Sequence record: PZ154895.1
Source: a phage
Direction: 5' to 3' (one strand)
DNA length: 64,000 nucleotides
Shown here: in pieces, positions 6,878 through 49,964 of the stretch
Layout: each line of letters starts with the position of its first letter
Numbering within the stretch: the first letter of the stretch is position 1
The notes under the pieces: generated by a model
Databases searched by the model: none
What the model saw: the letters and a program-made list of their open reading frames with translations, nothing else
Told to the model about the DNA's origin: nothing
Translations under genes and position numbers: made by a program

Positions 6878-7064
6878 CATTAACGATGAATTCATAGCAA
6901 ATATTGATTACACCGAAGAAGATTCTAGATATGTTGGAATAATTTATATCACATCAAAAGCAGCACAAGGTGTTGTTTGCATGGCTGAATTTGATGAATA
7001 CTTTTTAGATTATGATGATATGATAGAATGGTCTAAAAGATACATTAAAAGGAATCTTTTGTGA
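6849..7064 (+). CDS. hypothetical protein, 71 aa
   Basis: Track ORF 6801 trimmed to ATG 6849; stop overlaps gene 46 start. Confidence 0.4.
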   Translation: MHTVKFSTFDINDEFIANIDYTEEDSRYVGIIYITSKAAQGVVCMAEFDEYFLDYDDMIEWSKRYIKRNLL

Positions 7065-8749
7065 AGAATTTTAAACTAAACCGAGTTAGGTATCAAAATA
7101 TAATGTCAGTAGGTGGAAATCCTATTGACATTCAACTAGATAAGGTTCAAAAAACTCTTATTACTGGGCGAAATGGTGGTGGTAAGTCTACTATGTTAGA
7201 AGCCATCACATTTGGGCTTTTTGGCAAGCCATTTCGTGATGTAAAGAAAGGTCAATTAATAAACAGCACAAATAAGAAAGAACTTTTAGTTGAACTGTGG
7301 ATGGAATATGATGAGAAAAAGTACTATATCAAAAGAGGACAAAAACCAAACGTTTTCGAAATCACCGTTAACGGTACACGTCTTAATGAATCTGCCAGCA
7401 GTAAAGATTTCCAAGCAGAATTTGAACAGCTTATCGGAATGTCATATGCCAGTTTCAAGCAGATTGTTGTCCTTGGTACAGCAGGGTATACCCCTTTCAT
7501 GGGTTTGTCGACCCCTGCGCGAAGAAAGCTTGTGGAAGACCTGCTCGAGGTAGGAACATTAGCTGAAATGGATAAGCTTAATAAAGCACTAATACGTGAA
7601 TTAAATTCACAAAACCAAGTGCTTGATGTTAAAAAAGATAGTATTATCCAACAAATTAAAATATATAATGATAACGTTGAACGCCAGAAAAAATTAACTG
7701 GTGATAACCTTACTCGTCTGCAGAACATGTATGATGATTTGGCAAAAGAAGCTAGAACGTTAAAATCGGAAATAGAAGAAGCTAATGAAAGATTAGTTAA
7801 TATTGTTTTGGATGAAGACCCGACTGATGCATTTAATAAAATCGGTCAAGAAGCATTTTTAATTAAATCAAAAATTGACTCGTATAATAAAGTCATTAAT
7901 ATGTATCACGAAGGTGGATTATGTCCAACCTGTTTGTCACAATTAAGTTCCGGTGATAAAGTTGTTTCTAAAATTAAAGATAAAGTTTCTGAATGCACGC
8001 ATTCATTTGAACAGCTTTCAACACATCGTGATAATTTAAAAGTTCTTGTTGATGAATACCGAGATAATATTAAAACCCAGCAGACGTTGGCAAATGATAT
8101 TCGCAATAAAAAGCAATCCTTAATCACGACGGTAGATAAAGCTAAAAAAGTTAAAGCGGCTATAGAAAAAGCATCATCTGAGTTTATTGACCATGCTGAT
8201 GAAATAGCACTGCTTCAAGAAGAACTTGATAAAATTGTTAAGACAAAAACTAATTTAGTAATGGAAAAATACCACAGAGGAATTTTGACTGATATGCTCA
8301 AAGATTCTGGTATTAAAGGTGCTATTATTAAAAAGTACATTCCATTATTTAATAAGCAGATTAACCATTATCTTAAAATAATGGAAGCGGATTATGTGTT
8401 TACATTAGATGAAGAATTTAATGAAACAATTAAATCCCGTGGTCGTGAAGATTTTAGTTATGCTTCATTTAGTCAAGGTGAAAAAGCACGAATTGATATT
8501 GCTCTTTTATTTACTTGGCGTGATATTGCTGAAAAAGTTTCAGGTGTTAAAATAAGCTGTTTATTTCTTGATGAAGTATATGACGGTGCATTTGATGCTG
8601 AAGGTATTAAAAATGTAGCTAAAATTTTAGATGGTTTGAAGGATACCAACTTCTTCATAATTTCGCATAAAGACCATGACCCACAAGAATATGGTCAGCA
8701 TATTCAGATGGAAAAAGTTGGTAGATTTAGTTTAGCTAAGATTAGCTAG
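7061..8749 (+). CDS. 46: gp46 recombination nuclease subunit (SbcC/Rad50-like ATPase)
   Basis: 562 aa, GTG start; Walker A GRNGGGKST, zinc hook CPTC, coiled coil, Walker B LFLDE. Confidence 0.93.
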   Translation: MKNFKLNRVRYQNIMSVGGNPIDIQLDKVQKTLITGRNGGGKSTMLEAITFGLFGKPFRDVKKGQLINSTNKKELLVELWMEYDEKKYYIKRGQKPNVFEITVNGTRLNESASSKDFQAEFEQLIGMSYASFKQIVVLGTAGYTPFMGLSTPARRKLVEDLLEVGTLAEMDKLNKALIRELNSQNQVLDVKKDSIIQQIKIYNDNVERQKKLTGDNLTRLQNMYDDLAKEARTLKSEIEEANERLVNIVLDEDPTDAFNKIGQEAFLIKSKIDSYNKVINMYHEGGLCPTCLSQLSSGDKVVSKIKDKVSECTHSFEQLSTHRDNLKVLVDEYRDNIKTQQTLANDIRNKKQSLITTVDKAKKVKAAIEKASSEFIDHADEIALLQEELDKIVKTKTNLVMEKYHRGILTDMLKDSGIKGAIIKKYIPLFNKQINHYLKIMEADYVFTLDEEFNETIKSRGREDFSYASFSQGEKARIDIALLFTWRDIAEKVSGVKISCLFLDEVYDGAFDAEGIKNVAKILDGLKDTNFFIISHKDHDPQEYGQHIQMEKVGRFSLAKIS

Positions 8750-9458
8750 GTTTATATTTACAGTTATCATTATGCCATCTTGATAAATTTCCGAAAGTGG
8801 TAACTTTACCACAATGGACGCAAGTACCAGTCTTTTCAGTTTTCTTGCGTCCATTTGGATTTTTCTTGCAGAAATTTCTATGCGCTGCGATAACGCATTT
8901 CTTGCCTATCATTCCACAGAATTCGCAGGATGTTTCTTCAAGAACGATTGCTTTAAGCCCGTTTGAGATATTATTTCTGTGTTCTTTAGACATTGGTGGT
9001 CTAACTTTAGGATTAGGGTGATTTGGACAGTTATCAAAATGCCAACGATTCATATTCCCGCTTAATCCAGACTTACCGCAATGAGGACAAGTTAGTCTTG
9101 CTTTATTAGCTACTGCATCAGACATTTTCTTTCGTGTCTCCTGGGAGAATTCTTTGTTCTTTTCTATTTCCCAGAGTTTACGACGAATCCAACCGAAAGT
9201 TTTATTGTTGCGTTTAGCGTATTTCGTGGAAACTGTCATCATGTTAGCAGCATAGACTAATTTTGGTTCAGAAGGATAAATTTTTACTAAAAGTTGATGA
9301 GCTACATAGTGCTCTTCTGGCGTTAAATCTACTAAGTTTGAAGCATCATCACTACCGTTTAAACAGCGTGGTATAATGTGATGAGATTCAGTATAGCAAT
9401 CAAGTTTTCGAGATTTAGCATTAGAGATTAACTTTTCATAAATTAGTTTATAATTCAT
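8742..9458 (-). CDS. HNH homing endonuclease with three C-terminal CxxC...W..DNC zinc-finger repeats
   Basis: 238 aa; HNH motif ESHHIIPRCLNGSDDASNLVDLTPEEHYVAH; opposite strand to flanking genes. Confidence 0.7.
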   Translation of the reverse strand: MNYKLIYEKLISNAKSRKLDCYTESHHIIPRCLNGSDDASNLVDLTPEEHYVAHQLLVKIYPSEPKLVYAANMMTVSTKYAKRNNKTFGWIRRKLWEIEKNKEFSQETRKKMSDAVANKARLTCPHCGKSGLSGNMNRWHFDNCPNHPNPKVRPPMSKEHRNNISNGLKAIVLEETSCEFCGMIGKKCVIAAHRNFCKKNPNGRKKTEKTGTCVHCGKVTTFGNLSRWHNDNCKYKPS

Positions 9459-9509
9459 AACATATCCTTTTGATACAGCGAGTGATAAACATATTTATAC
9501 GGAGGAACT

Positions 9510-21678: not shown

Positions 21679-21861
21679 ATGGAATTGGTAAAGGTAGTTT
21701 TTATGGGGTGGTTTAAGAATGAAAGCATGTTTACTAAAGAAATCACAATGATGAAAGATGACGTTCAATGGGCTACTACTCAATATGCTGAAGTTAATAA
21801 AGCGCTAGTTAAAGCTTTCATTGATGACAAGAAAGTATGCGAAGTGGATTGCCGAGGATAA
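21679..21861 (+). CDS. dmd: Dmd antitoxin (discriminator of mRNA degradation)
   Basis: 60 aa; MELVKVVFMGWFKNESMFTKEI... matches T4 Dmd as recalled. Confidence 0.8.
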   Translation: MELVKVVFMGWFKNESMFTKEITMMKDDVQWATTQYAEVNKALVKAFIDDKKVCEVDCRG

Positions 21862-21862
21862 T

Positions 21863-22120
21863 ATGCATATTGTTTTATTTAAACCTACTCCGTATAACGT
21901 CAGGAAAAATACTCAATTCAAAGCACTTATCGCAGATACGTGGGAATTGGTATTAGATATTCCAGCAGAAGAAAGCCCTCCATTTGGTCGAGTGGAATTT
22001 ATTAAGTTTGCTGTGCGCCCTACGAAGCGACAGATTCGTCAATGCAAAAGATACTTTCGTAAAATCGTCAAGTTAGAGAAACAGTTTGTAACATGTGATT
22101 ATACAGAAGTTTTAAAATAG
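21863..22120 (+). CDS. hypothetical protein, 85 aa (61.4 position)
   Basis: ATG 2 nt after dmd stop; track ORF 21821 trimmed. Confidence 0.45.
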   Translation: MHIVLFKPTPYNVRKNTQFKALIADTWELVLDIPAEESPPFGRVEFIKFAVRPTKRQIRQCKRYFRKIVKLEKQFVTCDYTEVLK

Positions 22121-23449: not shown

Positions 23450-23614
23450 ATGAAAACATATAAAGAATTTATCAAAGAAGATATGGTAGCTGGAGATTCG
23501 GGTGGTAATCCTGAAAATATCTCTACTGGAACAACGTCAGGCGCTGTAGTAAATAAAGGTCCTGAACAGATTCCTAAAAAGAAAAAAGAGGAATCTAAAG
23601 AAAAAGAAGAGTAA
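23450..23614 (+). CDS. hypothetical Lys/Glu-rich protein, 54 aa
   Basis: ATG 23450 to TAA 23612-23614, 2 nt before gene 61; not in track. Confidence 0.35.
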   Translation: MKTYKEFIKEDMVAGDSGGNPENISTGTTSGAVVNKGPEQIPKKKKEESKEKEE

Positions 23615-23616
23615 AA

Positions 23617-24645
23617 ATGTCATCAATACCTTGGATTGATAATGAGTTTGCATATCGTGCATTAGCTCATTTACCTAAATTCACACAAGTAAATAATAGT
23701 TCAACTTTTAAATTACGGTTTAGATGCCCTGTTTGTGGAGATTCAAAAACCGACCAAAATAAAGCCCGTGGATGGTATTATGGCGATAATAATGAAGGAA
23801 ATATTCATTGTTATAACTGCAACTATCATGCACCAATCGGAATATATTTAAAGGAGTTTGAACCCGATTTATATCGTGAGTATATCTTTGAAATAAGAAA
23901 AGAAAAAGGTAAAAGTCGTCCAGTAGAAAAACCTAAAGAACTTCCTAAACAACCTGAGAAGAAAATAATTAAATCTCTTCCGTCATGCATTAGATTAGAT
24001 AAATTGGCGGAAGACCATCCAATTATAAAATATGTAAAAGCTCGCTGTATTCCAAAGGATAAATGGAAATATCTTTGGTTTACAACCGAATGGCCTAAAT
24101 TAGTTAATAGCATAGCACCAGGAACATACAAAAAGGAAATACCTGAGCCTCGTCTTGTTATTCCAATTTATAATGCTAATGGAAAAGCTGAGTCTTTTCA
24201 AGGACGTGCATTAAAGAAAGATGCTCCTCAAAAATATATCACCATCAAAGCTTATCCTGAAGCAACAAAAATCTATGGCGTTGAACGAGTTAAAGATGGT
24301 GATGTATATGTTCTAGAAGGACCTATAGATTCACTTTTTATTGAAAATGGTATAGCTATTACGGGCGGTCAATTAGACCTAGAAATTGTTCCATTTAAAG
24401 ATAGACGTGTGTGGGTTTTGGATAATGAACCTCGTCATCCTGACACTATTAAACGAATGACTAAATTAGTTGATGCAGGAGAAAGGGTTATGTTTTGGGA
24501 CAAATCTCCCTGGAAATCAAAAGATGTTAATGATATGATTAGAAAGGAAGGTGCAACCCCTGAACAAATTATGGAATATATGAAAAATAATATTGCCCAG
24601 GGGTTGATGGCTAAAATGCGGCTATCTAAATATGCTAAGATTTAA
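23617..24645 (+). CDS. 61: gp61 DNA primase
   Basis: 342 aa; zinc ribbon CPVCGDS...CYNC; length equals T4 gp61. Confidence 0.95.
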   Translation: MSSIPWIDNEFAYRALAHLPKFTQVNNSSTFKLRFRCPVCGDSKTDQNKARGWYYGDNNEGNIHCYNCNYHAPIGIYLKEFEPDLYREYIFEIRKEKGKSRPVEKPKELPKQPEKKIIKSLPSCIRLDKLAEDHPIIKYVKARCIPKDKWKYLWFTTEWPKLVNSIAPGTYKKEIPEPRLVIPIYNANGKAESFQGRALKKDAPQKYITIKAYPEATKIYGVERVKDGDVYVLEGPIDSLFIENGIAITGGQLDLEIVPFKDRRVWVLDNEPRHPDTIKRMTKLVDAGERVMFWDKSPWKSKDVNDMIRKEGATPEQIMEYMKNNIAQGLMAKMRLSKYAKI

Positions 24646-24842
24646 ATTAACCCAACTAAAGCAAATGCTAAATCTACGAATGTATCAAGAGTAATTACTG
24701 GAATATTAACACCATGAGCAATAGCAATTGGTGATAAAACAAAATTCCAAAGTAAAATTCCTACCATAGCAGAAATAGTAAAAGCTATACGTTTTTTATT
24801 ACCTTTTATGGCATTAACAAGTGCCATTAATTTTTGTACCAT
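24642..24842 (-). CDS. hypothetical small membrane protein, 66 aa (antisense to flanking genes)
   Basis: Strong TAAGGAGG RBS 4 nt before ATG on - strand; two hydrophobic segments. Confidence 0.4.
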   Translation of the reverse strand: MVQKLMALVNAIKGNKKRIAFTISAMVGILLWNFVLSPIAIAHGVNIPVITLDTFVDLAFALVGLI

Positions 24843-24854
24843 ATGTCCTCCTTA

Positions 24855-24879
24855 TTGCTTTATATATTTATTGTATAAT
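24855..24879 (+). promoter_or_regulatory. MotA-dependent middle promoter of gene 56
   Basis: MotA box TTGCTTTA 24855-24862, -10 TATAAT 24874-24879. Confidence 0.55.
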
Positions 24880-24913
24880 TAATCTACTAACCCATGAATT
24901 GAAAGGAAAAATA

Positions 24914-25432
24914 ATGGCATACTTTAATGAATGTTCACAACTGATCGAAGGCGCTGATAAAGCTCAAAATGAATACTGGGATATTCTCGGTGATGAAAAA
25001 GACCCACTACAGGTTATGCTTGATATGCAGAAATCTTTGCAGGTTCGTTTAGCTAAAGATAAACCTGAATATAACCGTCATCCTGATGATTTGGCTACTG
25101 CAGGCGAAGTTGTTGATTGGCTGCGTAATCAAAAAGATTATATTGACGATGAATTCCGTGAACTTCTGACTTCTCTTGGCGGCATGAGCAATGGTGAAAA
25201 AGATGCATCTGCTGTATGGAAGCCTTGGAAAGCTCAACATGGTGAACGCCGTGAAACTCTAATTACTGATTTGTCTCCGCAAGATCAGTTGGAAATTAAA
25301 TTCGAAATGATTGATATTCTTCATTTCGTTCTGAACATGTTCCAAGGTCTTGGTCTTACGGCTGAAGAAATCTTTAAACTTTATTATCTGAAAAATGCTG
25401 AAAACTTCGCTCGTCAAGACCGAGGTTATTGA
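24914..25432 (+). CDS. 56: gp56 dCTPase/dUTPase
   Basis: 172 aa from MAYFNECSQLIEGADKAQNEYWDILGDEKDPLQVMLDMQ...; matches T4 gp56; track start trimmed. Confidence 0.9.
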   Translation: MAYFNECSQLIEGADKAQNEYWDILGDEKDPLQVMLDMQKSLQVRLAKDKPEYNRHPDDLATAGEVVDWLRNQKDYIDDEFRELLTSLGGMSNGEKDASAVWKPWKAQHGERRETLITDLSPQDQLEIKFEMIDILHFVLNMFQGLGLTAEEIFKLYYLKNAENFARQDRGY

Positions 25433-25632
25433 TGGCTCGTTTAAATAAACGCCAGCTTAAGAAAGCCCGCAAGAAACGTATTGACCAGCTATTTAAAAAT
25501 TATGATAAGGAGCTCGTATGTGAGCTCTTATCTAATCAGCTCCGCAAAGCTCACACAATTAAAACTGGACATATACCAGGTAAGTGGGTGCATGAAGAAG
25601 CCTTAAAATTAATTATAGAGCATTCAAAATGA
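25429..25632 (+). CDS. hypothetical basic protein, 67 aa
   Basis: ATGA overlap with gene 56 stop. Confidence 0.45.
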   Translation: MMARLNKRQLKKARKKRIDQLFKNYDKELVCELLSNQLRKAHTIKTGHIPGKWVHEEALKLIIEHSK

Positions 25633-25838
25633 AATTTGATTTTTATGCATGGCAAAAAGCCGGTAGACCTGCTAGTCGAGCATTTGGTTCTGATGGATAT
25701 AATATTAGAGCCCATTGGAAGTTTAATGCTCCAGCCGATTATTCTCCGGTAATTATTAATGGTGATGTTGTTATATTAACTAAAATTGGATATTTTAACG
25801 TTCCGCGAGAATTTATTATAAATAATCATGTAATTTAA
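25629..25838 (+). CDS. hypothetical protein, 69 aa
   Basis: ATGA overlap with upstream ORF. Confidence 0.45.
   Translation: MKFDFYAWQKAGRPASRAFGSDGYNIRAHWKFNAPADYSPVIINGDVVILTKIGYFNVPREFIINNHVI
25817..25824 (+). promoter_or_regulatory. late promoter TATAAATA for soc
   Basis: Exact TATAAATA about 30 nt upstream of soc ATG. Confidence 0.65.
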
Positions 25839-25854
25839 ATAAAAGGAGAATTAC

Positions 25855-26100
25855 ATGGCTAGTACTCGCGGTTATGTTAATATCAAAACGTTTGAGCAGA
25901 AATTAGATGGAAATAAGAAAATTGAAGGAAAGGAAATTTCTGTAGCTTTCCCTCTTTATTCTGATGTTCACAAAATTTCTGGCGCTCATTACCAGACATT
26001 CCCTTCAGAAAAAGCAGCATATTCTACAGTATATGAAGAAAATCAACGTACTGAATGGATTACTGCAAACGAAGATTTGTGGAAAGTAACTGGTGAATAA
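25855..26100 (+). CDS. soc: Soc small outer capsid protein
   Basis: 81 aa; MASTRGYVNIKTFEQKLDGNKKIEGKEISVAFPLYSD... matches T4 Soc. Confidence 0.9.
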   Translation: MASTRGYVNIKTFEQKLDGNKKIEGKEISVAFPLYSDVHKISGAHYQTFPSEKAAYSTVYEENQRTEWITANEDLWKVTGE

Positions 26101-26105
26101 ATTCA

Positions 26106-26130
26106 AGGACTCCTCCGGGAGTCCTTTTTT
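26106..26130 (+). terminator. intrinsic terminator GGACTCC-TCCG-GGAGTCC-TTTTTT
   Basis: Directly after soc. Confidence 0.8.
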
Positions 26131-49956: not shown

Positions 49957-49964
49957 TATTTATA
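49957..49964 (-). promoter_or_regulatory. late promoter TATAAATA for t
   Basis: Exact TATAAATA on - strand 18 nt upstream of t ATG. Confidence 0.6.

Follow-up and report, generated by a model that had tools for sequence, protein, structure and literature searches.

The window analysed here, a 64-kb stretch of DNA from a T4-like phage (Tequatrovirus; sequence record PZ154895.1), covers ~38% of a genome of ~167 kb. Between gene 61, encoding the DNA primase, and soc, encoding the small outer capsid protein, it carries neither dam nor segF, and a small gene on the opposite strand, dam.1, occupies the interval between genes 61 and 56. Judged by its pattern of conservation, dam.1 is a genuine protein-coding gene under purifying selection. 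The 61-soc segment as a whole likely represents the commonest alleles at two variable intervals, an 'empty' 61-56 interval and a 56-soc interval with soc.2 and soc.1. This layout is ordinary and already deposited, and dam.1 has already been annotated.

The 61-soc segment lacks dam and segF

The T4 RefSeq record gives the order 61, an unannotated gap of 310 bp, dam, 56, segF, soc, in agreement with the order stated in the original prediction, which was made from the letters of the window alone. In the window, the 61-56 gap measures 268 bp (24646-24913) and the 56-soc gap holds two small open reading frames (ORFs) of 67 and 69 amino acids (aa), both as first described. These correspond to soc.2, which stands where T4 has segF, and to soc.1 with its DUF7422 domain; the latter is 100% identical to the T6 allele. 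The order annotated in phage ime09, 61 / RB69ORF029w-like / 56 / soc.2 / soc.1 / soc, is the layout of the window.

The claimed absence of the two T4 genes was confirmed by tblastn, as neither T4 Dam (best E 0.8) nor SegF (best E 9) found a match anywhere in the 64 kb. The DPPY motif, seen at the T4 control locus, is absent from every window reading frame of at least 80 codons. In the same set of frames the pattern [DNS]PP[YFW] occurs once, as SPPF in an ORF of 99 aa (21821-22120), which was rejected as a methyltransferase candidate: its T4 homologue lies at annotated gene 61.4 and is not a methyltransferase.

Phage ime09 shares this locus layout; its complete genome (166,499 bp) contains no homologue of T4 Dam (best E = 1.0), and no feature in its annotation tables, which span the whole record, is labelled as a methyltransferase. 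Among records named Escherichia or Shigella phage, dam.1 is present in 590 and any Dam-like match (E<=1e-5) in only 234. The complete ime09 genome and these database counts together make a Dam-less phage likely and, judging from such relatives with 64 kb of its own genome in view, the phage itself most probably encodes no Dam methylase. It might nonetheless methylate its DNA via a Dam or another methyltransferase encoded outside the window, given that the visible part is limited and that dam sits at other loci in other T4-like genera, e.g., RB49, KP15 and GAP161. Set against the ime09 genome and the database counts, we consider this scenario very unlikely.

GATC is the most under-represented palindromic tetramer, with observed/expected ratios of 0.29 in the window and 0.36 in the dam-less ime09 (next lowest tetramer 0.64).

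Prevalence of the layout among relatives

The segment from 61 to soc (23600-26110) matches 633 phage records, and identity amounts to 97-98.6% over all 2511 bp in Shigella phage SH-2, KFS-EC3, pSe_SNUABM_01, ime09, slur02 and other Tequatroviruses. Between larger pieces of the window the best-matching relative changes, which fits a mosaic T-even genome. Proteins at least 95% identical to the gp61 of the window occur in ~502 records, and the product of the small ORF, dam.1, at 80% identity or more in 503. The corresponding counts are 182 for T4-type Dam (at least 90% identical), 46 for SegF (at least 95%, partial T4 records counted in) and 173 for soc.1 (at least 90%). Roughly 64% of sequenced Tequatroviruses are without dam, and only about 9% carry segF. 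The layout without dam and segF is the commonest among the relatives and no peculiarity of this phage. Outside the genus, the Mosigviruses ST0 and ZQ3 have 61, the small ORF, 56 and soc and nothing more; dam is also missing from the Gaprivervirus VR25, which carries soc.1- and soc.2-like ORFs. In a published comparison, 'orphan DAM methylases' are named among the variable T-even genes (PMC11162368).

The soc.2/soc.1 allele that the window carries in the 56-soc interval is also annotated in ime09 and many other phages; T4 has the segF-type allele. SegF is a free-standing homing endonuclease of the GIY-YIG type, inserted between soc and 56, which targets gene 56 of segF-less phages and drives exclusion of gene 56 of T2L (PMC2988022, PMC2330249). 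As the window encodes no SegF homologue, this published mechanism would make its phage a potential recipient in a cross with T4.

Conservation of dam.1

On the minus strand of the 61-56 gap, the original prediction had noticed a hydrophobic ORF of 66 aa (24642-24842) and called it antisense. The ORF is real. The term antisense does not apply, because the overlap with gene 61 comprises only 4 nt (24642-24645) at the stop codons, with Ile-stop ending both genes; it is an opposite-strand gene. The product matches phrog_2024, a family of unknown function, with E=5.4e-31 (residues 2-66 versus profile positions 1-65 of 65) and is 100% identical to YP_007004415 of ime09. The same gene goes by other names, being called Dam.1 in T4T (ADJ39749, HM137666), RB32ORF030w in RB14 and RB69ORF029w in a note to ime09. 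It shares with T4T Dam.1 and phrog_2024 its length, position, ribosome-binding site and late-promoter core, and identity within Tequatrovirus is 94-100%. In T4 (NC_000866, 17738-17938, plus strand) an intact dam.1 ORF with 94% aa identity lies within the unannotated gap between 61 and dam. The gene is unannotated in the RefSeq record of T4, apparently also in those of T2 and PP01, and annotated in T4T, so T4 studies relying on the RefSeq annotation would not report Dam.1. It neighbours dam in T4, T2-type phages and HY03. Since dam.1 is intact beside dam in T4, it does not replace dam and is unrelated to the absence of that gene; we take the position that Dam.1 has nothing to do with methylation.

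A dam.1 gene was found in 693 phage records, nearly full length in all but six (687/693). Members of the family occur only in the Tequatro-, Mosig-, Gapriver- and Dhakavirus group; in a Karamvirus, a Pseudotevenvirus and Serratia phage 92A1 the place of the gene is taken by same-strand ORFs. The same convergent arrangement with a 4-nt stop overlap is annotated in ime09, HY03, T4T, ST0, VR25 and MX01, and in ZQ3, too, the gene lies on the opposite strand, convergent with 61 and with overlapping stops. Pairwise ratios of nonsynonymous to synonymous substitution (dN/dS) within Tequatrovirus are mostly 0.1-0.3, the substitutions being conservative. Between genera, synonymous sites are saturated (synonymous divergence, pS, 0.55-0.76) and about half of the residues are kept. 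The length stays at 65-66 aa throughout, with identity falling to about 48%, or 23% for a paralogue, and M1, L5, W32, N33, P38, G44 and P48 are invariant even in the latter.

The low dN/dS, the ~690 records and the conserved promoter core described below together mark dam.1 as a real gene. One might suppose a chance open frame or a dead gene, kept because it is young or because its DNA has another role: the ORF is short, AT-rich and hydrophobic, three RefSeq records leave it unannotated, and no functional literature was found. A frame of this kind would be hard to reconcile with its integrity across four genera, with dN/dS well under 1 and with the conservation of both a strong ribosome-binding site and a promoter core, and we regard this explanation as extremely unlikely.

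Two tandem dam.1 paralogues are present in VR25 (2495-2692 and 2701-2901 of locus L011). The second type, 23% identical with W-N...P...G...P kept, is the sole copy in Dhakavirus MX01 (2326-2526 of locus L018). When the ORFs of ime09 and of the window (all those of 30 aa or more) were searched with a profile of the family, dam.1 alone was recovered. Beyond these genomes, a word-indexed search of 5.8 billion proteins gave 33 close relatives of Dam.1, and a scan of IMG/VR only 5 near-identical loci.

Predicted expression of dam.1 and gene 56

The strong site reported in front of the 66-aa ORF is indeed present as the Shine-Dalgarno sequence TAAGGAGG (Table 1), and an (A)AGGAG(G) site is retained in all five lineages compared. 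Further upstream lies AATAAATA, a predicted gp55-type late promoter that ends 22 nt before the dam.1 ATG. T4 late promoters consist of a TATAAATA-type box a short way upstream of the transcript start, with no -35 element, and AATAAATA fits this pattern. The A(-13) form to which it belongs is the commonest variant among T4 late promoters, at 9 of the 50 listed sites (PMC2988020). The core NATAAATA recurs 16-22 nt upstream of the dam.1 ATG in five contexts with otherwise unalignable flanks, taking the form AATAAATA in the window type and in Mosigvirus, GATAAATA in T4 and HY03, CATAAATA in VR25 and the perfect TATAAATA in MX01. Its surroundings vary with the lineage: in the window the late-promoter box is flanked by the MotA box and the -10 element that belong to gene 56, whereas the Mosigvirus box is flanked by the ribosome-binding site and the MotA box. 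The neighbour of dam.1 is the dam cassette in T4, T2-type phages and HY03 and the gene 56 promoter in the window. What remains constant is the distance of the box to the dam.1 start codon.

Early and middle transcription of T4 runs in the direction of the window's plus strand. According to a review of T4 late transcription, the strand of dam.1 is used by late transcripts only (PMC2988020). In ime09 (NC_019503, 12-74607), the dam.1 orthologue is the sole annotated coding sequence on its strand among ~150 between rIIA and gene 4. ATAAATA occurs 11 times in the window on both strands together, versus ~48 occurrences expected from base frequencies. Of the nine [TA]ATAAATA sites, six lie 18-33 nt upstream of an ORF start (~38 nt for the gp34-like start); the ORFs behind them include soc, t, gp34- and gp36-like ORFs (named from their translations), dam.1 and an HNH-like ORF. 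Depletion and placement before ORF starts fit selection against stray late promoters.

From these sequence features we infer that dam.1 is expressed late from a gp55-type promoter. Late in infection, RNA polymerase carrying gp55 would start a few bases past AATAAATA, and the short leader, which folds no better than its shuffles, would bring along the strong ribosome-binding site. Alternatively, the ORF could share the early or middle expression of its neighbours and be read from a promoter of the sigma-70 type. Imm and Sp, small membrane proteins of T4 that act at the envelope, are early genes, and a TACAAT-like hexamer is found upstream of dam.1 on the minus strand. However, a promoter scan listed nothing sigma-70-like at 24843-24913 on the minus strand, and the conserved upstream element is a late-promoter core and not a -35/-10 pair, which renders early or middle expression highly improbable.

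MotA-dependent promoters follow the consensus (a/t)(a/t)(a/t)TGCTT(t/c)A, placed ~12 bp upstream of a sigma-70-type -10 element. A predicted promoter of this architecture, with the box ATTGCTTTA, an 11-nt spacer and TATAAT, precedes gene 56 on the plus strand, as the original prediction had proposed. It aligns with the sequence directly past the dam stop codon in T4 and HY03; X01416 labels the aligned T4 sequence 'mot-box of promoter P(M) 16.53' and marks its -10 element, and a note in the T4 RefSeq record places oriA at P(M)16.53. The window and the T4 dam-56 region thus have in common gene 56, the MotA-box and -10 architecture and the Shine-Dalgarno region. They differ in that T4 has dam upstream and the window does not, and in the promoter spacer, which reads TATATTTATTG in the window and CATACTCAAATGA in T4. 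The spacer of the window additionally holds the dam.1 late-promoter core on its other strand, and the two promoters, arranged back to back, overlap in the 71 bp that separate the start codons. In T4, P(M)16.53 primes oriA.

This arrangement bears on a further possibility, namely that the main product of dam.1 is a late antisense RNA and the peptide secondary. Transcripts would run into the 3' end of 61, pair with early or middle mRNA reading through from 61 to 56, and help to shut off expression of primase or of 56, or interfere with the oriA promoter. In line with this idea, 61 and dam.1 are convergent with overlapping stops in every lineage, no terminator-like site was detected past the dam.1 stop on its own strand, where folding does not reach significance (z = -1.3), and the late promoter of the window physically overlaps the middle promoter of gene 56. 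Yet the aa sequence is under strong purifying selection with synonymous change saturated between genera, conservation extends to the ribosome-binding site, the length of the ORF and the invariant residues, and VR25 has an intact tandem paralogue. Selection on amino acids, the conserved start and length, and the paralogue point to a selected protein; an antisense effect may coexist with it and does not explain these features. A regulatory RNA is a plausible idea and the main alternative to a role at the envelope, albeit an improbable one as the principal product.

A plus-strand terminator-like hairpin lies within the 5' coding part of dam.1 (24808-24827), 160 nt past the gene 61 stop; its 8-bp stem leads into TAATTTTTGT. 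The hairpin is weak (-8.9 kcal/mol, z = -2.0), and part of it consists of the palindromic ATGGCA/TGCCAT, which codes for M-A...A-I of dam.1.

Predicted structure of Dam.1 and comparison with known envelope proteins

Dam.1 is hydrophobic, with a grand average of hydropathy (GRAVY) of 1.25. Hydropathy peaks at residues 19-42 and again at 47-66; all five Lys/Arg residues fall between positions 4 and 18, and D53 and D57 are the only acidic residues. An AlphaFold2 (AF2) model computed from 11 sequences places helices at 2-12, 16-42 and 52-62 (predicted local distance difference test, pLDDT, 75.7; predicted template modelling score, pTM, 0.44). Together these features predict a small inner-membrane protein with its N terminus inside and one spanning helix. 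Once inserted in the inner membrane, Dam.1 would keep its positively charged, amphipathic N-terminal helix in the cytoplasm and cross the bilayer at residues ~19-42, a helix that includes the invariant W32, the polar N33 and P38. From there the conserved HGVxxP loop, likewise short, would lead to an amphipathic C-terminal helix, short and acidic, which lies at the periplasmic face (at or in the outer leaflet) or crosses it.

Small holins and pinholins (e.g., S21 68 with 68 aa) share with Dam.1 a similar size, hydrophobic helices and late expression, the last of these being predicted for Dam.1, and one UniRef entry names a 63-aa Dam.1 variant 'Holin'. Dam.1 was rejected as a holin on several grounds. 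Its charges are N-terminal and a charged C-terminal tail is missing; the second Met is not conserved outside Tequatrovirus; no lysis gene adjoins; no sequence similarity to any holin family was detected; and the window already contains a T-type holin gene, an ORF of 218 aa with its own TATAAATA promoter at 49964. T4 Imm and Sp, envelope proteins that act in superinfection exclusion, resemble the predicted Dam.1 protein in being small, T-even-specific and encoded in the same early region, sp being located ~1.5 kb upstream. They are, however, encoded on the early strand and Dam.1 on the opposite one, and no sequence similarity was found; a Dam.1 profile run against the whole ime09 genome detected no paralogue.

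The dam cassette of related phages

In HY03, an ORF of 186 aa abuts dam in the interval that separates the small ORF from the promoter of gene 56. The junctions are sharp: in the window, CCTCCTT, the reverse complement of the dam.1 ribosome-binding site, runs straight into ATTGCTT, which is the MotA box for gene 56, and HY03 has ~1.4 kb between these two points. Alignment of the junctions shows the window to be without exactly this cassette. T4 retains dam, but of the 186-aa ORF just the final ~85 bp. A complete copy of this ORF occurs in 155 records, T2 and Dhakavirus MX01 among them, with at least 95% identity in 154, and the cassette of 186-aa ORF and dam in about one third of Tequatroviruses.

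The 186-aa ORF carries a D...E-x-K motif (FDIVI...IIEIK). Four of six diverged members gave sub-threshold matches to the DpnII family (best E = 8e-5, below the Pfam cut-off), and a sub-threshold match to the PADLOC model of type II restriction endonucleases was also obtained; no solved structure was similar by sequence. The pattern suggests a nuclease of the restriction-endonuclease fold. dam thus seems to travel as one half of a restriction-modification-like pair, with T4 apparently a deletion derivative and the empty site represented in the window.

Other features of the window

The features of the 61-soc region are listed in Table 1. The gp61 of the window is 98-100% identical to Tequatrovirus gp61 and is labelled DNA primase in ime09, HY03 and T4; the gp56 label is found in ime09 and T4, and gene 56 starts at the ATG at 24914. 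In ime09 the counterpart of soc.2 bears that name. The soc ATG is located 30 nt past its TATAAATA box, and the equivalent place in T4 is annotated as putative P(L)15.32. No Rfam match was obtained between 23000 and 27000.

Table 1 Genes and predicted expression signals between gene 61 and the end of soc, in window coordinates.
Feature	Position	Strand	Description	Basis
Gene 61	23617-24645	+	DNA primase, 342 aa	ORF list
Palindrome ATTTAAAT	24640-24647		Contains stop codons of both 61 and dam.1	Read from sequence
dam.1 orthologue	24642-24842	-	Predicted small inner-membrane protein, 66 aa	phrog_2024 match, ime09 identity
Shine-Dalgarno TAAGGAGG of dam.1	24847-24854	-	4 nt before ATG	
MotA-type middle promoter of 56	24854-24879	+	MotA box ATTGCTTTA (24854-62), 11-nt spacer, -10 TATAAT (24874-79)	
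Predicted gp55-type late promoter AATAAATA of dam.1	24865-24872	-	A(-13) variant of TATAAATA	
Gene 56	24914-25432	+	dCTP/dUTP pyrophosphatase, 172 aa	Pfam dUTPase_2, E=1.1e-6
soc.2	25432-25632	+	66 aa from ATG, or 67 aa from TTG 25429	phrog_5782, E=7e-39
soc.1	25629-25838	+	69 aa	Pfam DUF7422, E=2.6e-46; ime09 counterpart annotated soc.1
Consensus late promoter TATAAATA of soc	25817-25824	+	Within soc.1 3' end	Motif scan
soc	25855-26100	+	Small outer capsid protein, 81 aa	Pfam Soc, E=1e-54
Terminator hairpin	26105-26126		3' of soc	Terminator scan

Elsewhere in the window, an ORF of 238 aa on the minus strand (8742-9458) starts directly after a plus-strand gene (7061-8749) that is gp46-like by its translation. 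Its translation shows repeated Cys pairs as well as HNH-like motifs (HHIIPR...EEH), and 33 nt upstream of its ATG, at 9492-9499, stands a perfect TATAAATA. It probably encodes a free-standing homing endonuclease. The ime09 annotation has no minus-strand ORF of the HNH kind beside gene 46.

Discussion

Dam.1 has no detectable relatives of known function. Tentatively, and as a possibility we regard as rather doubtful, it may be a late-expressed, dispensable protein of the envelope that modulates the timing of lysis or lysis inhibition, or late exclusion of superinfecting phage. Unlikely as it is, a combined scenario goes further in holding Dam.1 to be a functionally important late inner-membrane envelope protein, whose omission from the reference T4 annotation (NC_000866) would explain why it was overlooked, and, separately, the empty 61-56 site to be a recipient of a mobile GATC restriction-modification-like cassette. 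Under this scenario, Dam.1, common to the four T-even genera sampled, would tune holin-dependent lysis or lysis inhibition, or block entry of the DNA of superinfecting relatives. T2-type phages, in turn, could use a cassette of a MunI-fold nuclease and Dam against dam-less competitors such as this phage.

Several points weigh against the picture drawn here. The proposed role of Dam.1 is a guess from size, location and timing. The confidence of the AF2 model is moderate, and the C-terminal 20 residues of the protein may also span the membrane, giving a two-helix hairpin. The dam.1 promoter matches the late consensus at only 7 of 8 positions, and the in vivo strength ranking of variant late promoters is not established (PMC2988020). 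Searches of Pfam, NCBIfam and PADLOC with Dam.1 gave no match and PHROGs only a family of unknown function; a full profile search of 1.84 billion proteins or representatives recovered only 6 representatives of the Dam.1 family; and the searched literature yields no transcript, protein or phenotype data on Dam.1. Finally, ~100 kb of the genome lie outside the window, with room for a methyltransferase elsewhere.

For the window itself the finding matters little, since the layout and dam.1 are already found in many deposited genomes. The residual value of the locus lies in the link between dam and a restriction-enzyme-like gene and in Dam.1 as a well-conserved, probably late membrane protein. More broadly, Dam is optional in T4-like phages, and the statement that 'T-even phages methylate GATC' is false for most sequenced Tequatroviruses. 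This optionality bears on the choice of restriction enzymes, on calls of N6-methyladenine (6mA) and on the predicted sensitivity of these phages to methylation-dependent defences.

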